Shown here piece after piece: positions 1 through 21,311 of a stretch of DNA of 25,289 bases. The stretch covers positions 1-25,289 of the forward strand of contig JBDLKA010000048.1 in the NCBI GenBank assembly GCA_039714075.1, in the 5' to 3' direction. Both the position numbers and the translations under genes were made by a program. Positions within the stretch are counted from its first letter, which is position 1. Each line of letters starts with the position of its first letter. The stretch is from Candidatus Krumholzibacteriota bacterium. GTDB taxonomy: Bacteria > Krumholzibacteriota > Krumholzibacteriia > LZORAL124-64-63. The notes beneath the pieces were generated by a model, which saw only the letters and a list, made by a program, of their open reading frames with translations, did not search any database and was not told the DNA's origin.

Positions 1-30
1 TCGACATTCCCTCGCCGGGCTCTCCGTCAT
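1..30 (-). CDS. Possible 5' end of a gene running off the window (MTESPARECR...)
   Basis: ATG at 30 on the minus strand with GGGGA upstream, same strand as the preceding operon. Only 10 codons are visible. Confidence 0.25.
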   Translation of the reverse strand, partial: MTESPARECR

Positions 31-166
31 GTGTCGGTGTCCCCGTCCGGTCGGTTCGCTACCTTTCCCGTATGGCTGCCAACCTCTTCGAGAATCCGGC
101 TTCTCACCGGCCGACGGGTGATGGGGGGAAACCACCAACACAACACTGAATTTTCAAGGCGGGATC

Positions 167-2116
167 CTACCTCCTGTGGGAGGTGCCGCCGCCGCGGCTG
201 CCGCCCTTGCTGGATCCGCCGCCGCTGCTGCGGCTACCGCCACTGCGGCCGCCCGAACTGCGACTGCCGCCACTGCTGCTGCCGGAACTGCGGCTGCCAC
301 CGGAGTTCGAATTCGACTTGTTACCCACCGAGCCGGAGCTGCGAGTGGTGTTCCCCTTGCTTCGGGAAGATCCCGACTTGGGCTTCACCTTGCTGCCCCG
401 CTCCTTGGTGCCACTGGATTTCTTGCTGCGGGAATCGGGTTTCACTCTGCTTGACGACCCCGAACGAGTTCCCTGGGTCGAACGGCTGGGGCGATTGCTG
501 CCCGGCCGTACCTGGCGCGTGCGGTCGTTACGGTCACTGGACTGGCCGCTGCGGCCGGAATTCCAGACCCGGGTGCCCCTTTTCCGCGGTTCGACCGGTT
601 TGATGGTCCTCTGCGTCGACCTTTGGCCGGTTTGGTTCCCGGCCTTGCGGTCCTGGACCGACCCGCCGGTGCGGCTCGTCCCGGAACCGCGCACGGTGGT
701 GGAGCTCCCGGAGCCCCGGCTCACCGGAACCAGGCCCGACCGGATGCCGCCCCCGCCGGCCCGGTGCCGGAAATCGGGTTCGGTCTGCCGGCCACCAGTG
801 CGACCATTGACACCACTGTTGGTACGTGAGCGGGAGGTGGTGCTGCCGCCATCCCTGATGCGCAGGCCCGCATTGCCCCGGGTCCGTACGCCTTCATCAA
901 ATCGGGGCCGTCCGCGGGGAGAGACCTTGGTATCCGCACCGCCACTGCGCCGGGCGCCGGTGGCGGCCAGGTTTCCGGAGCGGCCCCTGAGACCGTCGAG
1001 ATCCGACATTCTGGTTCGATTGCTCATGGCATCCCGCTGGCGGGAGTCGGGTGTATCGGAGTTGACCATCCGGCTGACCGATGCATATTCCCTGGTCTTG
1101 GTCACCGCGCCGCCCCGGCCACCCTGGGTAAGGGGCTTGTAGCGGCGATTCCCGTGGCTGCCATTGTCGTAATAGGTGTAGCAGTTGCCGGCGTAATAGG
1201 GTGAATAGCCCCAGGAATAGCAGGTCCGTCCGTACCAGCCGTAACCGTAATAGGGAGCGCAGGTATAGGAAGGCCAGTACCAGAAGTTGATCCAGGGCCT
1301 CCAGGTCCACGGATCCACGTAGACGTAGACCGGATTGGCGTAGACGGGGTAGTAACCGTAATCGGTATACCAGGAGTTGACCCAGCCGTAATCGTATTTG
1401 ATTTCGAGGGTGCACGTATCCCGGTAGGGCTGGTAGGCCACCTCATCCTCGAAGTGGCACTGGTTGCACAGATAACGAGGATGCTCGACCTGGCGGTGCA
1501 CGTAATAGCTGGTGTAGTTGGTCACCACGTATTCTTCCGAGTTTTCCAGACCCGTAACCGCGAAGTTCACCTCGTTCATGGCCAGGAAGGGATCCCCGGC
1601 AACCTGGAAATGGAATTTGTCCACATTCTGTTCGTGGTGGAAATCGATTTCCAGATCCCTCAGGTCGAAGGGATATTTCGAGACGACCGCCTCGACGAAC
1701 CCCTCCCCTTCGTTGTTCGAGGTGCGCAGCTGGCGGGCTCCCGCCACCGGCAACAGGTATTCGTGGCCGCCGAAGACAAAGCCGTCATCCAGCCGGCTGC
1801 GGGGCCAAAGCACCGTGACCAGCCCATCGGCGTCGATGCGGTAGACCACGGCGTAGGCATCCTCGTTGGTCTGGAAACCGGCGCCCATTTCCTCGCCGCG
1901 CTGATAGATCTCGTCTTCCGCGCGATCCAGCCAGACGCCGACCCGCAGGTCCACCTTGCCGTAGTCGAAATCGCCGCTTTCGTTGTTCTGGGCCAGGACC
2001 GCGGTGTTCAGGCCGAAAACCAGGGCCAAGCCGAACAGGACGGCCGCCGAAAGGATATTCCACCTCGAGGGAAACCCTCGCAGTTCGTCCTTGGTATGGT
2101 TGTTTATCGCTTTCAT
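167..2116 (-). CDS. Exported DUF4384-like domain protein with CxxCH motif, Tyr/Trp-rich segment and long Arg/Ser/Gly disordered tail
   Basis: ORF 167..2155; ATG at 2116 has AGGAG at 2130-2126. Signal-peptide-like N-terminus ending AVLA-Q. The segment VWLDR..YQRGE...FQTNEDAYAVVYRIDADGLVTVLWP resembles DUF4384. CNQCH lies at 1468-1454. GGSRSSG-type repeats at the C-terminus. Confidence 0.8.
   Translation of the reverse strand: MKAINNHTKDELRGFPSRWNILSAAVLFGLALVFGLNTAVLAQNNESGDFDYGKVDLRVGVWLDRAEDEIYQRGEEMGAGFQTNEDAYAVVYRIDADGLVTVLWPRSRLDDGFVFGGHEYLLPVAGARQLRTSNNEGEGFVEAVVSKYPFDLRDLEIDFHHEQNVDKFHFQVAGDPFLAMNEVNFAVTGLENSEEYVVTNYTSYYVHRQVEHPRYLCNQCHFEDEVAYQPYRDTCTLEIKYDYGWVNSWYTDYGYYPVYANPVYVYVDPWTWRPWINFWYWPSYTCAPYYGYGWYGRTCYSWGYSPYYAGNCYTYYDNGSHGNRRYKPLTQGGRGGAVTKTREYASVSRMVNSDTPDSRQRDAMSNRTRMSDLDGLRGRSGNLAATGARRSGGADTKVSPRGRPRFDEGVRTRGNAGLRIRDGGSTTSRSRTNSGVNGRTGGRQTEPDFRHRAGGGGIRSGLVPVSRGSGSSTTVRGSGTSRTGGSVQDRKAGNQTGQRSTQRTIKPVEPRKRGTRVWNSGRSGQSSDRNDRTRQVRPGSNRPSRSTQGTRSGSSSRVKPDSRSKKSSGTKERGSKVKPKSGSSRSKGNTTRSSGSVGNKSNSNSGGSRSSGSSSGGSRSSGGRSGGSRSSGGGSSKGGSRGGGTSHRR
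183..330 (-). repeat. Degenerate coding repeats (GGSRSSG/GGSS) at the C-terminus of the DUF4384-like protein
   Basis: Recurrent ctgcggctgccgcc / ccgccactgc units on the + strand translate as SGGSRSSGSSSGGSRSSGGRSGGSRSSGGG on the minus strand. Confidence 0.7.
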
Positions 2117-2151
2117 GGTTTCACGCTCCTTTTTTCCAGTCCGTCGGCCGA

Positions 2152-3168
2152 TCAAAAGCTGACGATCTGCGGCTTGGCCGGGCCTGTCTCCAGATCCTCG
2201 GGGGCCTTGAGTTCGGGCAACCCGGGAATGGTCTGGTACGCCCAGATGATGTCAACGGTATCCTGATAGGTGCCGGTGACCCCGAATTTCGCGTAATGCA
2301 GTGCCTGACCCCGGATTTCCACCACGTAGATATGCCCGGCGACCAGTTCGATTTTACCGGTCTGGGAATAGCCGTCGGCCGGCGCCCAGGAAACACCCTC
2401 GAAAATGAGGGACCCGCCGCTGGTGAACACGCCGAAATCCTGCAGGACGACTCGCGAGGGGTTGGCATCCACGTAGGGAACCCCGTTTTCAAAGTATATG
2501 ACAAAGTCGGCAGGATCGACCGTCGGGTCGACCCGACCGGCATTGATATTACCCTGGTTGGCGGCCGCCTTCGCGAAATCGAAACCGGACTTGTTGGCCT
2601 GGGCGCCATTACCGTCAAAGAGTTCCACCGCGATATAGTTTCCGTTCACATAGGGACTCATCGGCAGCGGGGCGTCGAGAACGAGCTCGAAGCTGAGGGC
2701 GCTCTCTTTGCCCGCCGCGTTGACGGCCGCGACCGCGTATTCATACCGGAAGCCGTTTTCCACTTCGATGTCGTCGAACCAGTGCAGCCCGGTGTAGTCG
2801 TCATAGTTCTCGTCCCAGGCCACTTCACCGATATAGTAGAACTCGCGGTTGGGATCATTCTGATCCCCCTCTTCGAAGAAACGGCTGTAGATCACGTATT
2901 TTTCCACGTTGGGACTGTAGGTGCCGTCGTAGGGGGCATAGGAGATGTCGTACCACTGGACAATGACGAGATTGTCACCGCTGATGGTGTGGACACCCGT
3001 GGGAACGACCGGAGGCGGCAGTTCGCCAATGGGGGGTTCCACGCAGTTGAGGCAATCCTCATCCGACTCGCAACCGGCCAACAAGGCAACCAGGGCAATC
3101 AAGACGGCCGCCATAACGGCTGACTTCAACCAGGTGCTTCCTGTGGTATTTTCCTTGGCCCGCTTCAT
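2152..3168 (-). CDS. Lipoprotein with FN3-like N-terminal domain and beta-rich C-terminal domain
   Basis: GGAGG SD at 3180-3176. Hydrophobic stretch with lipobox LAGC. FN3-like pattern P..PTGV....GDN.V.V.W ... YEYAVAAVN..G.ES.LS. Acidic composition. Confidence 0.8.
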   Translation of the reverse strand: MKRAKENTTGSTWLKSAVMAAVLIALVALLAGCESDEDCLNCVEPPIGELPPPVVPTGVHTISGDNLVIVQWYDISYAPYDGTYSPNVEKYVIYSRFFEEGDQNDPNREFYYIGEVAWDENYDDYTGLHWFDDIEVENGFRYEYAVAAVNAAGKESALSFELVLDAPLPMSPYVNGNYIAVELFDGNGAQANKSGFDFAKAAANQGNINAGRVDPTVDPADFVIYFENGVPYVDANPSRVVLQDFGVFTSGGSLIFEGVSWAPADGYSQTGKIELVAGHIYVVEIRGQALHYAKFGVTGTYQDTVDIIWAYQTIPGLPELKAPEDLETGPAKPQIVSF

Positions 3169-3214
3169 GTTACGACCTCCAGGTCATCGGTTCAGTATTC
3201 CTGCCCACACATAC

Positions 3215-3229
3215 GCACGGTCCGTGCCA
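3215..3229 (-). promoter_or_regulatory. Sigma-54 (-24/-12) promoter for the lipoprotein/DUF4384 operon
   Basis: Minus strand reads TGGCACGGACCGTGC: GG-N10-GC with the full TGGCACG -24 element. Predicted start near 3203, about 35 nt before the ATG at 3168. Confidence 0.75.
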
Positions 3230-3480
3230 CTTGGTTCGGACCCTGGCACGGGAAAATGCCGAAAGCGGAAATAAGGTATAATAGCCGGCCCGGAGGAGGC
3301 CATCAACTCGTTAAACTGTTATCCGGCAGGACAATAAAGCACCACCGGTTTGGCTGGTAAGGTGAAAGTATCCCCTGGCCTTACCCATCACCTTTTCCCG
3401 GTTATTGAATTCCGGTGTTCATGTTTGTGCGATTTGAAGGACAGATTACCCAAAAAGGGACGAGGAGGAAGGTGGCAGGC

Positions 3481-3553
3481 AAAAAAAAAGAGCCCCGCCT
3501 TGCGGCATCCCGATCTTGAATCTCGCCATTTCAAGATCAGGCGGGCTCTTTTT
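3481..3553 (-). terminator. Intrinsic terminator built as a three-way junction (3' end of the candidate ncRNA)
   Basis: Minus strand: AAAAAGAGCCC ... GGGCTC followed by T9, enclosing a CCTGATCTTGAA/TTCAAGATCGGG stem and a GCC-GCAA-GGC hairpin. T5 on the + side means it could be bidirectional. Confidence 0.75.
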
Positions 3554-3801
3554 CCGGGACCTGCCGGCCAGGTCCAGATTCTTTCAGTCATTCGTGTTTC
3601 GGGAGAAAAGGATTCCGGTTCTCTCTTGCCGACGAATTTGATTGATCAGACCCCACCTCGTCACAACCGATCCGCCGACCCTTCTTGTTGAGAACTCCTT
3701 TTTGCCGGTAAGCATTAAGGAAAGAACCTCAACTCTCCCGAAAACACGAATTTCAAACAACATTCAATCTCCGAAGAGGATCCCTGTAACTCACCCCTTC
3801 A
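3481..3801 (-). ncRNA. Candidate sigma-54-dependent structured non-coding RNA (~320 nt), family not recognised
   Basis: Bounded by a sigma-54 promoter (3827-3813) and a U9 terminator. Contains a cUUCGg hairpin (3778-3769), a 17-bp closing stem (3751-3734 with 3606-3590), nested inner stems, a 7-bp hairpin (3575-3557) and a GCAA tetraloop. Most non-Watson-Crick positions are G-U on the minus strand. Confidence 0.6.
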
Positions 3802-3812
3802 CCCCCTGTACA

Positions 3813-3827
3813 GCAGGACCCGTACCA
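3813..3827 (-). promoter_or_regulatory. Sigma-54 (-24/-12) promoter
   Basis: Minus strand reads (T)TGGTACGGGTCCTGC(T): GG-N10-GC. An AT-rich tract lies upstream (about 3830-3960), as is typical of bendable sigma-54 spacer regions. Confidence 0.65.
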
Positions 3828-3906
3828 ACTTCAAGATTGAGCAGGAAAAATTTAAGTCACTATGTTTATGGAGGTTACGGCATTCAAAAATTAGCCGCGA
3901 GGGCAC

Positions 3907-3922
3907 CAATCACAGCTGATTG
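3907..3922. promoter_or_regulatory. Candidate upstream activator sequence (palindrome CAATCA-N4-TGATTG)
   Basis: Perfect 6-bp inverted repeat about 110 bp upstream of the predicted sigma-54 start at ~3801, a usual enhancer distance. Confidence 0.35.
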
Positions 3923-3987
3923 TAAACAGTTTTTATAGCTTTCGGGCGCTGAAACATAAGTGGCCTGGTTGGAACAAGTTAAGATAT

Positions 3988-4014
3988 AAAAAAAAAGAAT
4001 GCCCAAACGGGCAC
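3988..4014 (-). terminator. Intrinsic terminator of the TPR sigma-54 activator gene
   Basis: Minus strand: GTGCCC-GTTT-GGGCAT then TCTTTTTTTTT, about 25 nt after the stop at 4040. Confidence 0.65.
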
Positions 4015-4039
4015 AAAGAGGACAAGTTAACAGGGAGGG

Positions 4040-7000
4040 CTACTCTTTCCCCAAACCGTAATGGCGGATCTTCTTGAGAAGGTTGGGATAGCTGATCTTG
4101 AGCGACCGCGAGGCCTGTGATTTGTTGCCCCCGGACAGTTTCAGGGCCCGGCGGATTTCCCGGCACTCGATTCCCGCCAGGGTATCCCGCAGGGGAATGA
4201 CTTCTTCCCCGGGAGCTTCATGGTCGACCCCGCCGGAAATTTCGGCAGGAAGATGCTCGGGTCGCAGGACCGAGTCGCCCTGGGCCAGCACGATGGCTCG
4301 GCGCAGGGCCTTTTCGAGTTCCCGCACGTTTCCGGGCCAGGAATGATTGATCAACATGTCGAGGAACACCCGGTCCAGGTCTGAAGGGGCAGCCTCCATC
4401 TCCTGGCTGAACCGGTCGACGAAGTGGTTGGTCAAAAGCTCGATGTCGTCAGCCCGCTCGCGCAAGGGAGGAATCACCAGGGGGAAATCGAGCAGCCGGT
4501 AGTAGAGATCCTCGAGGAAGCGGCCCTCCTGGGCCATCTGGTGCAGATCCGATTTCGAGGCGCAGACGATCCGGACATCCACCCGCAATTCCCGATTGGA
4601 CCCGACCGGGCGCACCACTTTGGTATCCAGGAAATGGAGCAGTTTGCCCTGCATGCTGAAGGGCATCTTGCCGATCTCGTCCAGGAAGACCGTTCCGCCT
4701 TCCGCTTCCACCAGCAGCCCCTGCTTGTCATTGTGGGCCCCGGTGAAACTGCCCCGCTTGTGGCCGAACAATTCACTTTCCAGCAACGATTCTGGAATGG
4801 CGGCACAATTGATGGTCAGGAAACGGCGATCGGCCCGTTTGCTCAGGGCATGGATGGAATAGGCAAGCAGTCCCTTGCCGGTCCCCGTCTCCCCGTTCAA
4901 CAGGACGGTCAAATCGCTGGGCGCCACCTTCCGGGCCAGCCCCAGCATCTCGAGCATCTTCACGTTCTGCGTGATGATGTTCTCGAAACTTTCGATCTTT
5001 TCGAAAACCCCGAGTTCTGCGGCCTGGGACCCGCCCCGCCCCTTCTCGTACAGGAACAGTGCCAGGAATCCCATGTAGGTGGCCAGAAAGTCCAGGGAAG
5101 CCCTGTCGAAACCGGGTGCGGCCTCACTCCGGGAGGATTTCCCCAGGAAAAGAAGACCGAACTGACGCCCGTGAAGGGCAATGGGCATGAACACGCAACT
5201 GGCAGCGACCGTGGCCAGGGCAGGCACCGCCTGGGTAAGCGGGTCCCCCTCATCCAGTTTGGAAAACAGCGAGGTACCCGACCGGTGACCTTCGGCCAAT
5301 TCCCGGTCGAACCAATGGGTCAACTGCTGGCCCAGGTTTTCGGTCAGGCCGTGGCGGGCCGTGATCCGCAATCCGTCCCCGGCACCGGTGTCGTCGACCA
5401 TGGCGATAAAACCGGAATCGGCCTGGACCCTTTCCATGCCCGCACCCAGGACCGAGCCCAGGTTGCGGGGCACCGAAGCGTCCCCCTTGGCGAACAGGCC
5501 GGGCAGGCAGGAGATGGCCTGCAGATGACTTTCTGTACTCTGGACACCGCCCAGCAGCCCTCCCTCGATCCGATCCCGCAACTCGACCACCATGGGAGCC
5601 AATTCGACGTCGTCGAAGCCGGCCGCGTGCCTTTCCAGTTCAAAAACGGTGAGCAGGGCATCATCGAACTGGCCCAGCCTGATCTGGACTTCGGCCAGGC
5701 GCTCCAGGATGTCGCACAACATCCGGTCGCTGACCGCGGAAGCCCCGTTTTCCTGGGCGTCCATCAGGAAGCGCCGCAGCAGAAGCAGTTCGGCCTCGCC
5801 GGCGGTATCAAGGCGATGGTCGGTGAAATCGAGGATCGTCCGGCACCAGTGGTGGGTCAGTTTCTGTTCACCGAAGGTGGCGATGGCCTGGCGGAAATGG
5901 TAGTCCGCCTGTTTCTGGTCCGCCTGGCCGGAATAGGCCTTGCCCATGGTGGCGTGACAGAAACCGATTTCGTAGTTTTCGCCGCAATTCTCACAAACGG
6001 CCAGGGCGGCCTGGCTGACGGCCACCGCTTTTTCCAGGCGGCCGGCCATCAAATGGGCTTCACCCATGCGCCGCTGCAACTCGCCTTCGAGATCGTTCCC
6101 CGCGGCGATGGTGCGTGATTTTTCCAGACCCAGCTGGTAGTTGAAGCGGGCCTTTTCGTGCTCGCCCCGGGCCAGCAGGATATCGCCCAGGTACTCGTCG
6201 GCAATGGTGGACTCACGCAGGAAACGGTTCTGATCGGCGAAGGCCTTGCCCTCGAGGATCAATTCCTCGGACCGGGCCAGGCGACCGGACAGGGTCTCGA
6301 GGCGCCCCATGGCCAGATAAAGACGGGTCTGCCGCATCCTGTCCCCGAGGCTGACGGACAACCGCAGACCTTTTTCCAGCAGGGACCGGGATTCACCCAG
6401 GCGGTCCATCTTCTGCAGGATGATGCCTTGATTGAGATAGAACCCGGGCAACAGATGGCTGGCGCCGATGTTGTGGGCCAGTTCGACCGCTTTTTCCATC
6501 AGGGATGTGGCGCGGTCCCAGCGGCAGCGGATCTTCTGCAGGACCGCCAGGTTGTTCAACAGGTTGGCCACACCCAGATCGTGTCCGATACGACGGAAGG
6601 TGGACAACCCGTCGTTGAAGAATTCCTCGGCTTTTTCCAGGCGCCCGAGCCTACTGTAACAGATCCCCATCCCCACCTGGAGAACGGCGACATCCGAATG
6701 TTCATCCGTCAGGGCCAGGACCGAAAAAGCGCGTTTCGCCAGATTCAGGGAGTCATGGAGCCGACCGCGCTCGCGCAGAGCGATGGCGCTACGTGCCTGG
6801 AAAATGGCCCGGTGGACGGCGATCTCGTCTGGGTCCGAAACGACCGAGGTCCGGGCGATGAGATCCTCCGCCCGGTCGAGAAGCAGATCAACCTGGTCGA
6901 AGTTGCCCAAAAGGATGTTGGAATCGACTGCCTTGCGCAGGACCCGCACGGCCTGGTCCCGGTCCATCCGGGAAAGAACACCTTCAGCGAAGAGTTGGCG

Positions 7001-7150
7001 GTAATAATCCAGGGCCGTGGAATAGGCGGAGGCATGATAGTGAAGGTCGCCGATTTCCTCCAAGCGGGCCCACTCCGTCCCCTGCCGGGAACGGGCGCTA
7101 TCCGGCTGGCCCGAATTGGACTGGCTTTGGTCTTTGAAATTATCTCTCAT
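4040..7150 (-). CDS. Sigma-54 enhancer-binding protein with long N-terminal TPR array, GAF-like domain, AAA+ domain and Fis-type HTH
   Basis: Walker A GETGTGKG, ESELFGH, GSFTGA, Walker [15 protein letters not shown] and HTH GNKSQASRSLKISYPNL. TPR-like helices such as LGRLEKAEEFFNDGL, ANLLNNLAVL and YLNQGII. GAF-like CVFMPIALHGRQFGLLFLG. No receiver domain. Start is ATG 7150 or TTG 7153, after GAGGGA. Confidence 0.92.
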   Translation of the reverse strand: MRDNFKDQSQSNSGQPDSARSRQGTEWARLEEIGDLHYHASAYSTALDYYRQLFAEGVLSRMDRDQAVRVLRKAVDSNILLGNFDQVDLLLDRAEDLIARTSVVSDPDEIAVHRAIFQARSAIALRERGRLHDSLNLAKRAFSVLALTDEHSDVAVLQVGMGICYSRLGRLEKAEEFFNDGLSTFRRIGHDLGVANLLNNLAVLQKIRCRWDRATSLMEKAVELAHNIGASHLLPGFYLNQGIILQKMDRLGESRSLLEKGLRLSVSLGDRMRQTRLYLAMGRLETLSGRLARSEELILEGKAFADQNRFLRESTIADEYLGDILLARGEHEKARFNYQLGLEKSRTIAAGNDLEGELQRRMGEAHLMAGRLEKAVAVSQAALAVCENCGENYEIGFCHATMGKAYSGQADQKQADYHFRQAIATFGEQKLTHHWCRTILDFTDHRLDTAGEAELLLLRRFLMDAQENGASAVSDRMLCDILERLAEVQIRLGQFDDALLTVFELERHAAGFDDVELAPMVVELRDRIEGGLLGGVQSTESHLQAISCLPGLFAKGDASVPRNLGSVLGAGMERVQADSGFIAMVDDTGAGDGLRITARHGLTENLGQQLTHWFDRELAEGHRSGTSLFSKLDEGDPLTQAVPALATVAASCVFMPIALHGRQFGLLFLGKSSRSEAAPGFDRASLDFLATYMGFLALFLYEKGRGGSQAAELGVFEKIESFENIITQNVKMLEMLGLARKVAPSDLTVLLNGETGTGKGLLAYSIHALSKRADRRFLTINCAAIPESLLESELFGHKRGSFTGAHNDKQGLLVEAEGGTVFLDEIGKMPFSMQGKLLHFLDTKVVRPVGSNRELRVDVRIVCASKSDLHQMAQEGRFLEDLYYRLLDFPLVIPPLRERADDIELLTNHFVDRFSQEMEAAPSDLDRVFLDMLINHSWPGNVRELEKALRRAIVLAQGDSVLRPEHLPAEISGGVDHEAPGEEVIPLRDTLAGIECREIRRALKLSGGNKSQASRSLKISYPNLLKKIRHYGLGKE

Positions 7151-7232
7151 CAACCGTATCCCTCGGCGAGGAAGTGGACCGGCGACAATTTATTTTTTGT
7201 CCCGGCTTCAGGACCGCCCCTCACGGGCAGTC

Positions 7233-7565
7233 CTAAAGAGCCAGCTGGATCAGTGAGTTCAGGAGGAGCCAGAGCTCATCCAGGACCGAATCGTCCCAAT
7301 CACCGCATCCTTCTAGGGAACCCAAACCGTCAGGTTGATCCTTAGCCCCTAAACCATCTCCCATTTCACCAGGATCACCATTCTGGCCGTCGTCGGAGGC
7401 CCCATTGACTACGACGACAAGATCATTTTGATCATTTTGGGAGGAGGAAGCTGAGGAATCCTGCTTCTCCGGAATTCCACCGGCAGCAGCAACAGAAGAA
7501 AGCGAAGTGATGGACAAAAACGACCACATCACCAGAAGAACCAGAACCGTCAGATTCTTTTTCAT
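7233..7565 (-). CDS. Small (110 aa) secreted acidic protein, candidate propeptide
   Basis: AAGGAG SD before ATG 7565. MKK n-region, hydrophobic h-region and VAAA-G cleavage-like site. Asp/Gly/Ser-rich mature part (GDPGEMGDG) and amphipathic C-terminal helix VLDELWLLLNSLIQLAL. Confidence 0.75.
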   Translation of the reverse strand: MKKNLTVLVLLVMWSFLSITSLSSVAAAGGIPEKQDSSASSSQNDQNDLVVVVNGASDDGQNGDPGEMGDGLGAKDQPDGLGSLEGCGDWDDSVLDELWLLLNSLIQLAL

Positions 7566-7705
7566 GTCCTTCTCCTTCATAACAACACCCCGTCTTAAAC
7601 AAAACCACCGCGGCACTCCGGACCTGGTATCTGGAGCCGCAGAAAAATCCTAATTACTCTATTTATTTACGGATCAAAGGTTGATCCGTCAACAAGTTTC
7701 GGGAA

Positions 7706-9067
7706 TCAACCCGATTCCGGCTGGGTACGCAGCCCGTATTTGGTGATCTTCTTGTAGAGGTTGCTCCTCTGCATTCCCAAGGCTTCCGCCGTCTTGCTGA
7801 CATTGTACAGGTTTTCCTTCAGCTTGTGTTGAAGAAATGCCCCCTCGCTTGCGGATTTGAAGTCCTGGAAGTCGTTGCATTCAAAAAAAGAAGGTTCCCC
7901 GGCGACCTCATGGGAGGCACCGGGCAACAGAGGCAGGTCCGTGGGCTTTATGACCTCCTCCGGGGCCAGGATCAGCATTCTTTCCACCAGGTTACGCAAT
8001 TCCCGGACGTTGCCGGGCCAGGAGTATTCCTGCAGGATCGCCAGGGTCTCGGGGTCGAAACGGCGGGGCTTTGTTTTCAGCCGCGCGGCCAAATCGGCCA
8101 GGAACCATTCCAAGAGCAGGGCAATGTCCCCTTCCCTCTCCCGCAAGGGAGGCAAATGAATGGAAAGGACATTCAGGCGGAAGAAGAGATCCCTCCGGAA
8201 ACCGGATTCCGGCGAAGACAGATCGCGGTTCGTGGCGGCCACGATACGAACATCGACTGACTTGGTGTCTCCCCCTCCCACGCGCTGGAACTTGTTTTCT
8301 TCCACCGCCTTGAGCACCTTGGCCTGAGCCTCTTCGTTCATGTCGCCAATTTCATCGAGAAACAGGGTTCCCCCGTCAGCCAATTCGAATTTGCCGATTC
8401 TCTGCTTGTCCGCGCCGGTAAAACTGCCCTTTTCATGGCCGAAAAGTTCACTTTCAACCAGATCCCGGGGGATGGCCGCACAATTCACCTCGACCAGGGG
8501 ACGGTCCATGCGGGCGCTGGCCCGGTGAATGGCCCGGACCACGAGTTCCTTGCCCGTGCCGTTCTCGCCGGTGATCAGGACGGTCGCCTCGCTGGCGGCA
8601 ACCTTGTCTATGAAGGCCCGCACCTCGCGGATGCCCCGGCTTTCCCCCACCAGGGGGTGGGATGTGACCGCCTGATCCTGGAGAATGCGGCGGTCCGAAA
8701 GCACCTCCTGGTGATCCAGGCAATTGGTGAGCGTCACCAGCAGCCGCGACCTGTCCAGGGGCTTTTCCAGGAAATCATAGGCGCCCTTCTTGACGGCATC
8801 CACAGCGGTTTCGATGTTGCCATGGCCGGAAACGACGATCACGGGCATCCGATGCCCGTCGGCGGCCAGGCGGTCAAGAACTTCGAAACCATCCATTCCC
8901 GGCATCTTGACGTCCAGCAGAATGACGTCCGGAGCCGAGGACGCCACCACGGCCAGCCCCTCGGCCCCGGACCCGGCTTTTTTCACTTCGTAACCCTCAT
9001 AGGAGAGAATCTGTTCAAGGGTTTCGCGGATGGCGATTTCATCGTCGATGACAAGGACCGTTTTCAA
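7706..9067 (-). CDS. NtrC/NtrX-family sigma-54-dependent response regulator (REC-AAA+-HTH)
   Basis: REC motifs [18 protein letters not shown] and [60 protein letters not shown] start. Confidence 0.95.
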
Positions 9068-9235
9068 TGGTCTTCCCTTTTCGTGGGGGGCGGCTTGCGC
9101 GTCGAGCCCGCCGGTAGGTTATTGGGGTTGCTTATCGCACCTTTGCCATAACTTGCACCGGTTTTCAAGCGGGTGTCAAGAGGCGACCGGATTCGAGAGT
9201 CCTTCAGGACAATGCACCCGATCAAGGATCAAGCG

Positions 9236-19622: not shown

Positions 19623-21311
19623 TCAGCTGAAGAAATGGGGATCGATCTTCAGCTCGGCGGCACGTGTCCTCAATTCGGCCAGCACCTCCGGGGTTACCTG
19701 AAGGAATTCCGCGGCCTGACTGGGACTCTCCTTTGGCTCGACGAATTCCTCGACCGGGGGCTGCTCCTCACCTTCGATTTCCTCCACCTGGCCACTGCTG
19801 GTCAGGGCGACTTCCTCGCCGAGGGCGATCATGGCGGCGATGCGGTTGTTGGTGGCCTCGGCCTGCTGGAAACCATGATGCCAGCGGACCGCCTCCTCGA
19901 GTTCCGGGCTCAGATTCCATTCCTTGATCAGCAAGGCCCCCAGTTCCCCGTGATCGAATCCCAGTCGCTGCCGTTCCACCACGTGGTACGGCATCCCCTG
20001 CGCCGAGGATTCATTGACGATCTCCTGGAAAAGCTCGGGATGGCTGCGTGCCAGGACCAGCTGGCCGATGTTCTGCATCAGACCACCGATGAATACGCTG
20101 TCGGGATTGCTGCCGCCGAGGGCCTGGGCCACCAGTTGTCCGGCCATCGCGGACATCACGGACTGCCGCCAGATCTTCTGGTACAGCATGCCCGCGCCCG
20201 GGGACAGGAAAACCGACCGGGCGGCGGTCACCAGGGTCCAGTTCCTGATGGCTACGAAACCCAGGCGGACAATGGCCTCGCTCACGGTGTCGATTTCCCG
20301 GACCGCCCCGTAGAACGGGCTGTTGGCGATGCGCAGGACCTTGGCCGTCAGGGCCTGGTCCATGGCCAACGCCTGCTCGAGTTTGGGCGCGGTGGTTCCC
20401 GGATCCTCGATGACCGCCATGATGTGGCAGGCCGCCTTGGGCAGGGCCGGCAATTCCCCGCTGTGGTTCAGGATGGATGCCGGAGTCAGGTCCCCGGTCC
20501 GGCCCTCCCGTTCCGCGGTGGTTGCCGATTCGTCGGAGGCAGCCGCCACGGTTCCGGCGGCGGATTGGTCCCCCGCCTGCGGATCGGCCTCGGCCGGATC
20601 CGCGGCACCGTCACCGGGCAGGCCGGGGTCTGACCGGGCTTTTTTCTCCAGGTCGGTCCGGCGCCGGTGGAGTTCGGTTTTGAGGATTTGTTCCGCCGCC
20701 CCCTTGCGGTATCCGATCCCCTTGTTGAGCAGGCTCATGCGCGCCAGGGCGTATCGAGCCAGGATCTCCGCCGCGGCCAGGACATTTTCCGTGTCCTGGT
20801 CCGCATCCAGGTAGAGGAAGGTGTTCCAATGGCTCTGGGAAGGCAGGGGCAAAATGATGATCCGCCGATCCCTGCTGCCGCGGCCGAGCATGAGGGTCAG
20901 GTCCAGGGGAAAATGTTTTTCGGGTACCGGCCCGGCATAGACCGTGGGATCCTTGGAGAGGGCGTGAAAGACATCCTCATCCGTGCTGGGAATGGGCGCC
21001 CGCCCGTCGGGGCGTTTCTTCTTGGCTTCGGCGGGCAGTTGGATGTTCTTCTCCAGAAAGACCTGAAGGCCGCTGGTCCAACGCTTAAAGAGCACCAGGC
21101 GAAGTCCCGTGCGTCCGGCCAGACGATGAAAGAATTCGGGGAATTCCTTGATCTGGGTCAGACCTGAAATTTCCGTGAACCCCATCCGCAGAAGGTCCAG
21201 CCCGTCCCGGGTCTGTTCCGCCACGGAGCCATCATGCTTCGGCGTCAGGGCATCCAGCATCTCATCCACGCCCTGGAGTTCATCCGTTTGTGTTGCCAAG
21301 GGTTTCCTCAT
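19623..21311 (-). CDS. HDOD domain signalling protein with uncharacterised N-terminal domain and acidic linker
   Basis: LPALP, DQALTAKVLRIANSPFYG, I.TVSEAIVRLG, G.DHGELGA.L...WNL and AVRWHH. Start 21311 or TTG 21299. Confidence 0.85.
   Translation of the reverse strand: MRKPLATQTDELQGVDEMLDALTPKHDGSVAEQTRDGLDLLRMGFTEISGLTQIKEFPEFFHRLAGRTGLRLVLFKRWTSGLQVFLEKNIQLPAEAKKKRPDGRAPIPSTDEDVFHALSKDPTVYAGPVPEKHFPLDLTLMLGRGSRDRRIIILPLPSQSHWNTFLYLDADQDTENVLAAAEILARYALARMSLLNKGIGYRKGAAEQILKTELHRRRTDLEKKARSDPGLPGDGAADPAEADPQAGDQSAAGTVAAASDESATTAEREGRTGDLTPASILNHSGELPALPKAACHIMAVIEDPGTTAPKLEQALAMDQALTAKVLRIANSPFYGAVREIDTVSEAIVRLGFVAIRNWTLVTAARSVFLSPGAGMLYQKIWRQSVMSAMAGQLVAQALGGSNPDSVFIGGLMQNIGQLVLARSHPELFQEIVNESSAQGMPYHVVERQRLGFDHGELGALLIKEWNLSPELEEAVRWHHGFQQAEATNNRIAAMIALGEEVALTSSGQVEEIEGEEQPPVEEFVEPKESPSQAAEFLQVTPEVLAELRTRAAELKIDPHFFS

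Follow-up and report, generated by a model that had tools for sequence, protein, structure and literature searches.

A conserved cassette of a small, putatively exported protein, a TPR-type sigma-54 activator and a structured RNA in Candidatus Krumholzibacteriota: a candidate peptide-signaling circuit

Introduction

Cytoplasmic peptide signaling through tetratricopeptide repeat (TPR) proteins is described for Bacillota in the available part of PMC10075063, with Pseudomonadota and Actinomycetota typically using small molecules. The same part of that source gives the RRNPP signature as a propeptide of 10–100 aa, a receptor of 250–500 aa, a Sec signal peptide, TPRs, and neighboring genes (PMC10075063). 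On the side of sigma-54 activators with small RNA (sRNA) outputs, the production of LuxO is held down by the Qrr sRNAs through negative feedback, according to the accessible portion of PMC3262071, and pxr is, in the accessible sections of PMC5568312, an sRNA gene directly downstream of nla19, a sigma-54-dependent regulator, with its own sigma-54 promoter ~260 nt after it. Here we describe a cassette in a contig of Candidatus Krumholzibacteriota that joins a gene for a small, putatively exported protein, a TPR-type sigma-54 activator and a structured RNA, and which by analogy may have an input resembling that of RRNPP systems and an output resembling that of LuxO-Qrr or nla19-pxr.

The window, meaning the whole stretch of DNA that was analyzed and to which all coordinates refer, comprised 25,289 nt of contig JBDLKA010000048.1 (assembly GCA_039714075.1), from a genome of 4.06 Mb that is 92% complete. 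All parts of the module were found on the minus strand, where a preliminary description of this DNA had placed them (Table 1); that description lacked the NtrC-type response regulator gene upstream of the small open reading frame (ORF). The cassette is real and conserved, and apparently undescribed: no account of it was found in the literature searched, subscription journals and preprint supplements being outside its reach. We lean towards a reading in which a core peptide of the small protein is exported, processed and re-imported and controls the activator via its TPRs, the activator makes the RNA, and the RNA damps the activator.

Results

Small, putatively exported protein

Comparisons were made over 101 loci, namely the window and 100 loci taken from 150 listed activator matches and picked for flanking sequence and spread (99 orthologues plus one paralogue, without family f3). 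The small signal-peptide ORF that had been noted directly upstream of the activator (7565-7233) proved to be a constant companion of activator homologues: an ORF of 84–126 aa with a signal-peptide-like start, ending at most ~130 nt from the activator, was present in 99/101 loci. Of the two loci without it, one lay at a contig end and the other was a copy with a frameshift in which the core was still seen; two of the 99 ORFs look frameshifted and were excluded from later alignments. Signal peptides were called by a charge/hydropathy heuristic plus a sequence motif, and the x-x-Ala motif occurred in 92/96 small proteins. The 110-aa protein of the window begins with Lys-Lys, a hydrophobic stretch and Ala-x-Ala, and its layout is a predicted signal peptide (residues ~1–28), a variable acidic/Gly linker, the core, and an amphipathic C-terminal helix.

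Among 96 aligned small proteins, only M1, G63, and D64 were invariant. The core follows the pattern G-D-P/A-D/G-D-x-x-x-G, with clade-specific variants, and its nine residues were 74% identical as against 20% for the rest of the mature part (810 pairs whose TPRs were 63% identical on average). The motif was found in 162/163 ORFs, compared to a mean of 33 and a maximum of 46 in 200 shuffles, the motif having been defined on the same data. The core holds an Asp-Pro bond at 7379-7371, and three relatives (L076, L077, and L079) have GDPH; this recalls self-cleaving GDPH motifs but is not universal, as ~30% of cores have Ala there. An Atlas search with the small protein returned only clusters below 0.9, commonest in Eisenbacteria and Zixibacteria, which is a lead only.

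Activator and its TPR region

Pfam assigned TPRs (TPR_12, TPR_2), a GAF_2 domain (residues 571–698, below cut-off), Sigma54_activat (PF00158), and HTH_8 (PF02954) to the activator, and no Response_reg match was obtained in it, in agreement with its earlier reading as a receiver-less TPR-GAF-AAA+ protein apart from the sub-threshold GAF match. The translation contains the AAA+ signatures GSFTGA, GETGTGK, and VFLDEI. With its AAA+ loop, Walker A and B motifs and Fis-type helix-turn-helix (HTH), the protein has the features of sigma-54 enhancer-binding proteins, and is accompanied by a predicted -24/-12 promoter, a putative upstream palindromic enhancer, and rpoN, which is present in the genome. 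The N-terminal 708 residues matched 204/208 genomes of the phylum and 125/125 high-quality ones (E ≤ 1e-10), although weak matches may be other TPR proteins.

The TPR region was modeled as an all-helical superhelix (pLDDT 92). Foldseek ranked TPR-peptide complexes of LGN/Pins first, while MalT domain III was the target with the best TM-score (0.78), and RRNPP receptors were absent among the top 50 fold matches listed. In a profile search, Rap and NprR appeared at E ~1e-5 to 1e-4 only, below many eukaryotic TPRs. On the eight assigned helix pairs, 22 conserved polar residues were located, 17 on A helices and 5 on B helices, many of them Arg or Lys, with Asn at 201 and 241. The A helices line the groove of TPRs, and the many conserved Arg/Lys residues fit an acidic ligand. 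Complex prediction of TPR residues 24–535 with small-protein residues 48–80 scored 0.58, the best of three controls reaching 0.02; the mark applied was reached by 116/157 solved complexes and 2/215 mismatches, and scores of at most 0.60 at that mark came from only 18/157 solved complexes and from both mismatches. The runs shared at least 48% of contacts with a partner pLDDT of at least 46, and no interface was given.

Paralogous pairs and comparison with RRNPP systems

On contig C40 of the same genome lies a single paralogue of TPR-AAA+-HTH architecture, again accompanied by a signal-peptide ORF. The paralogue family matched 78/208 genomes of the phylum, and 67 of the 71 paralogous genes examined in 70 loci had an upstream signal-peptide ORF (one frameshifted) with a clade-specific core; the other four were two contig ends, one case with the ORF found by eye, and one without an ORF. 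As each paralogous activator would have its own peptide, the genome would hold several cognate pairs. The paralogues are ~820–870 aa long, 200 aa shorter than the activator, lack a GAF-sized segment, and are located away from the NtrC-type regulator. A downstream sigma-54 site was seen in few of them. In the C40 pair (L156), the ORF of the predicted exported protein (9343-8966) has a GDPLD core and a beta-strand-like tail, and the activator (frame 9204-6400) shows no GAF-sized segment. In one relative (L076, genome G110), a second full-length activator copy is paired with a propeptide of its own, and none of P1, P2, and enhancer 1 follows it.

Like the RRNPP(A) systems of Bacillota (Rap-Phr, NprR-NprX, PlcR-PapR, AimR-AimP), the locus has a small Sec-type propeptide gene beside the gene of a cytoplasmic TPR protein, a short conserved core within a variable precursor, and several paralogous pairs per genome; the predicted Sec signal peptide, the TPRs, and direct neighborhood of the genes are all present, at the frequencies given above. 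In contrast, against the size ranges in the available part of the RRNPP source, the receptor is far larger (1036 aa) and the precursor misses marginally (mostly 100–126 aa). By these limits, as far as that part of the source gives them, the published detector would miss such pairs. The TPRs here are N-terminal to a GAF-AAA+-HTH, sigma-54-type output, the host is a diderm, and the nearest TPRs are those of LGN/Pins, kinesin light chain, and MalT, with Rap and NprR weak. The RRNPP-like input proposed earlier is supported as a candidate propeptide–TPR pairing, while membership in RRNPP itself fails on size and homology.

Promoters and enhancers

The two correctly spaced sigma-54 promoters were confirmed as exact GG-N10-GC sites at 3827-3812 (P1) and 3229-3214 (P2). 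The pattern TGG[CT]AC[AG]N5TGC occurs 28 times in the genome, two of them at this locus; P1 was present in 96/101 loci and P2 in 91/101. The palindromes associated with P1 and P2 (enhancers 1 and 2) did not cross-score (medians 15.9 vs. -6.6, and 19.0 vs. -1.2). One activator serving both promoters was rejected on this ground.

Enhancer 1 often occurs as two copies 63–64 nt apart, and the window has one strong copy (3938-3920). No other site in the genome scores as well, and no other strong site lies next to a sigma-54 promoter. Lineages in which the activator retains its ISYP-x-LL-x-KI recognition helix (Eisenbacteria-type, f3) also retain enhancer 1. Given an enhancer 1 that has no equal elsewhere in the genome and accompanies the activator across lineages, P1 is probably a target dedicated to the TPR activator, which would act through this palindrome; the activator-to-sRNA output of the preliminary description gains from this pattern. 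In one lineage (L243:1660-2300), what follows enhancer 1 and P1 is no obvious RNA but a protein-coding gene, the product of which is exported and acidic/Trp-rich.

Of the 98 loci with enough flank, 93 have an NtrC-type regulator gene upstream of the small ORF, and enhancer 2 scored in 77 of these 93 and in none of the five without such a gene, with the matrices trained on those same loci and kin not being independent. As enhancer 2 is unlike enhancer 1, P2 appears to belong to another activator, probably the NtrC-type gene itself. The suggestion that the TPR activator drives the exported operon was therefore not upheld: the enhancer differs, and P2 and the lipoprotein gene, sought within 1.5 kb, were found in 0/4 loci of family f3. 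Two further sigma-54 sites of the same genome have enhancer 2 in front of them, one on contig C27 and a weaker one on C99; these candidates (C27:930-797 and C99:11001-11120) each stand before a small exported protein and are possibly a regulon of the second activator.

A homologue of the lipoprotein-like protein was found downstream in most loci, and the ORF in the window (3168-2152) had no Pfam match. In relatives, the gene after the P2 operon encodes a large M6-peptidase-like protein (M6 match below cut-off), one full copy of which has FG-GAP repeats and a T9SS-like tail (tail match below cut-off); SprA is present in the genome.

For the operon of the small protein and the activator, a TTGAC-type sigma-70-like promoter was recognized by eye in most of 15 leaders. 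Sigma-54 autoregulation was rejected, a sigma-54 site scoring above 12 being present in just 1/99 leaders. In the window, a perfect 9-bp inverted repeat (7690-7668) overlies the sigma-70-like promoter, and was not seen in the 15 printed leaders of relatives. The terminator ascribed to the activator was seen as a hairpin at 4014-3999, but a terminator-like hairpin was kept in just 12/101 loci.

Structured RNA and feedback on the activator

The RNA predicted to start from P1 folded better than 100/100 shuffles (z -2.5), and 34 of its 43 consensus pairs showed double-sided changes among 36 family members, with a covariation term of -5.3 kcal/mol. The expectation of a GG-N10-GC promoter and a structured RNA downstream of activator homologues was borne out. 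Conserved loops are at 3712-3704, 3659-3649, and 3527-3522, GTGGGG occurring in 94/96 sequences and GGCGAG in 85/96; the terminator ends at ~3481. The RNA is single-copy in the genome, and no shared small ORF was found inside it among 13 sequences inspected. Listings of sequencing runs contained no RNA run, which counts neither for nor against its transcription. A search of window positions 1–9200 against Rfam gave no match over the RNA, including none to the Qrr or Pxr families.

Pairing of the whole RNA with the activator start, accessibility included, was clearly above shuffles in families f5–f9 and not in f1, the family of the window (55 of 92 loci run). A narrower segment, the first 40 nt of the RNA, was chosen after this result; at p ≤ 0.05 vs. 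shuffles, it paired with the activator start in 11/12 loci of f6, 2/3 of f7, and 9/10 of f8/9 (22/25), through family-specific sequences covering the start codon or the first codons. In f1, f2, and f4, UCGCC stands beside the Shine-Dalgarno sequence in 68/69 activator leaders and complements the GGCGAG loop of the RNA, and the leader element of the window is complementary to both its GGCGAG and GGUGG loops. This complementarity amounts to a short seed, 5–6 bp in the family of the window, and is no more than suggestive. As for targets in trans, the G-rich loop had 216 seed matches among the 15,498 candidate starts of the genome, none prominent.

The activator gene of CbrB-CrcZ in Pseudomonas is likewise followed by a long sigma-54-dependent non-coding RNA, with two-component input and Hfq sequestration, neither of which is applicable here on present evidence. 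Hfq (PF17209) was not found in the 92% complete genome; PF01423 was a poor probe, which failed to detect Hfq in E. coli. As in LuxO-Qrr of Vibrio, within the accessible portion of its source, a sigma-54 activator would drive an sRNA, with feedback probable here in several families. Unlike LuxO, which is controlled by phosphorylation, the activator lacks a receiver, and the RNA is ~320 nt long and unrelated in Rfam. The arrangement resembles nla19-pxr of Myxococcus in that an sRNA gene with its own sigma-54 promoter directly follows the activator gene; in contrast, Nla19 is a response regulator, Pxr has 108 nt, and no propeptide gene or TPR sensor is mentioned in the accessible sections of the source.

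A second RNA, of ~200 nt, after the DUF4384 gene, has an unpaired C-rich stretch and conserved loops and is complete at L135:14480-14700; this copy had no match in Rfam. Its C-rich motif was found after the DUF4384 gene in 47/101 loci, and in f2, f6, and f7 a related C-rich module directly follows the first RNA instead. The G-rich loop of the first RNA and the C-rich stretch of the second could form ~7 bp with one G-U, and clear compensation was not seen by eye.

Occurrence beyond the phylum

Profile searches returned many full-length activator relatives at 30–35% identity, and 4 of 20 clusters looked up were Ca. Eisenbacteria. In the Atlas, similar architectures were commonest in WOR-3 and Acidobacteriota (architectures alone, gene context aside). 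When metagenomes were scanned with one protein of the Eisenbacteria clusters, 22 of the 78 loci obtained were relevant, most of these being close kin of each other. All 11 of these Eisenbacteria-type loci with upstream DNA carried an ORF with a signal peptide and a core of the GDGDG or GDPDE type, an ORF that is kept despite a different gene upstream. Of the 15 with downstream DNA, 14 showed a sigma-54 site between +203 and +259, 14 scored at least 9 for enhancer 1, and 2 reached 12 for enhancer 2. In family f3, the small ORF was present in both loci with upstream DNA, and P1 with an RNA-like region in 4/4.

Discussion

Synteny, the constrained core, its recurrence at paralogues and in another phylum and, weakly, complex prediction support a peptide–receptor pairing, and direct binding of the core to the TPRs is quite probable. 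In the circuit we favor, the small protein and the activator would be co-expressed from the sigma-70-type promoter, and the small protein would be exported by Sec and cleaved to a short acidic Gly-Asp-Pro/Ala peptide. The peptide would return to the cytoplasm, plausibly through an Opp/Dpp-type transporter, and may dock in the concave groove of the TPR superhelix, to which the complex prediction lends weak support. It would then switch the AAA+ domain. The N-terminal domains of such activators usually exert negative control, so that switching on is more likely than off. The activator would bind the palindrome and fire P1, as the comparative evidence strongly suggests, yielding the 320-nt RNA, and the RNA may pair with the translation start of the activator and damp the loop, as the pairing in three families and the seed in the family of the window suggest. 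P2 and the lipoprotein/DUF4384 operon would form an adjoining unit with another enhancer. Travel of the peptide between cells, and with it any sensing of density, is a more doubtful step. To a similar degree, we can only tentatively propose that pheromone systems of this kind are widespread in diderms, with cognate exported Gly-Asp-Pro peptides that are processed, pass from cell to cell and, once re-imported, act on TPR sigma-54 activators, a genome having several such channels, and with sRNA feedback in the core channel.

Several observations weigh against this circuit. The cores follow the receptor clades on the tree, as a co-phylogeny of peptide and receptor would have it, yet the same is expected from linkage alone. 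The same core is also found throughout a genus or family, a slower divergence than would be expected of signals specific to kin. At the end of the ORF, hydropathy over 15 residues exceeded 1.6 in 27/97 cases, and such a hydrophobic tail could tether the protein. The locus contained no processing site and no protease or transporter gene, and the Opp-type binding proteins of 120/121 genomes are unspecific, being found in 11/14 controls too. The docking of the peptide in the TPR groove proposed earlier found a counterpart in the complex prediction, which may echo the solved LGN-peptide complexes, and none in covariation: the 30 top core–TPR pairs by mutual information comprised 8 on A helices, 5 on B helices, and 17 elsewhere, without groove enrichment. 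It may be the GAF domain that receives the actual signal. Finally, pairing of the first 40 nt of the RNA was not above shuffles in f1 (0/58), f2 (0/4), and f4 (1/7).

The first alternative, which we regard as unlikely, is that the system is a cell-autonomous monitor of export or of the envelope: the core binds the TPRs, and the signal stays in the cell, either as an unexported precursor accumulating in the cytoplasm on Sec failure or as a membrane-tethered form clipped in the periplasm under envelope stress and retaken directly. It fits the binding evidence equally well and makes passage of the outer membrane unnecessary; amphipathic or hydrophobic helices beside the core in most families, conservation of the core at genus to family level, and neighbors encoding envelope or secreted proteins, including the M6-peptidase-like proteins with their sub-threshold T9SS-like tails, all suit it. 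However, the several paralogous pairs of a genome, each with a core of its own, suit separate channels better than a single export monitor.

Improbable, and more so than a monitor, is that the small protein acts on another partner in the envelope, such as a sensor kinase for the orphan regulator, with the activator sensing a metabolite (GAF) or a protein (TPR). The lack of groove-specific covariation, the GAF domain of the main family, and an upstream response regulator without an adjacent kinase in the window agree with this. Nevertheless, the core-bearing ORF is kept by paralogues that have no GAF-sized segment and lie away from the response regulator, and by Eisenbacteria-type loci in spite of their different upstream gene, and the complex prediction gives weak support to core–TPR binding. 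An arrest peptide that senses secretion, like SecM or VemP, and controls activator translation in cis with the core as stalling motif would explain the signal peptide, the brevity and conservation of the motif, and the closeness (within ~130 nt) of a following gene whose leader is conserved, yet it is very improbable: the motif is acidic, and its distance to the stop codon varies, at 30–56 residues in the main family and 33–85 residues in paralogues, so that a stalled ribosome would not be placed at a fixed position relative to the activator start.

If pheromone systems of this kind, with peptides traveling between cells, are real, they would extend intracellular peptide quorum sensing beyond Bacillota, by way of another TPR lineage and to another output. 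The cassette, near-universal in an uncultured diderm phylum and present in Eisenbacteria-type sequences, would offer a new mode of control for a sigma-54 activator, namely by a co-encoded peptide, and a library of more than 160 natural peptide–receptor pairs for orthogonal switches, together with two uncatalogued RNA families. Each step of the circuit can be rebuilt in E. coli, making culture of the host unnecessary.

Other features of the window

The features of the locus are collected in Table 1. Searches of viral contigs and of plasmids found no relative. Elsewhere the window carries common housekeeping genes (RlmN, Rrf2, MutY-like, acyl-CoA ligase, cation efflux, M28 peptidase, and BatD) and, at 19623-21311, a gene for a HDOD-domain protein (Pfam) with an uncharacterized N-terminal half.

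Table 1. Features of the cassette and its surroundings in the window, in minus-strand order.
Feature	Coordinates	Strand	Basis or remark
NtrC-type response regulator, orphan	7706..9067	-	Pfam: receiver-AAA+-HTH; candidate P2 activator
Sigma-70-like promoter of propeptide-activator operon (TTGAC, 17 nt, TA-rich hexamer)	7664..7692	-	By eye
Exported small protein, candidate propeptide, 110 aa	7233..7565	-	ORF; predicted signal peptide
Core GDPGEMGDG (residues 63-71), conserved; candidate for the mature signal	7353..7379	-	Alignment
Activator-leader element, directly 5' of Shine-Dalgarno	7165..7177	-	UCGCC conservation
TPR-GAF-AAA+-HTH sigma-54 activator, 1036 aa, without receiver	4040..7150	-	Pfam
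Terminator-like hairpin and T run 3' of activator	3989..4014 (hairpin 4014-3999)	-	Kept in few relatives
Enhancer 1, palindrome TRTAAA-N5-TTTAYA	3920..3938	.	Likely TPR-activator site
Sigma-54 promoter P1	3812..3827	-	GG-N10-GC
Structured non-coding RNA, ~320 nt	3481..3801	-	Folding, covariation; predicted transcript
Enhancer 2, GTCCC-N5-GGGAC type	3446..3462	.	Unlike enhancer 1
Sigma-54 promoter P2	3214..3229	-	GG-N10-GC
Lipoprotein-like protein, 338 aa, first P2-operon gene	2152..3168	-	Lipobox in sequence; without Pfam family
DUF4384 protein, exported, Tyr-rich middle, Gly/Ser/Arg-rich tail	167..2116	-	Pfam
Second structured RNA, 5' part, truncated by contig end; unpaired C-rich stretch 130-119	1..150	-

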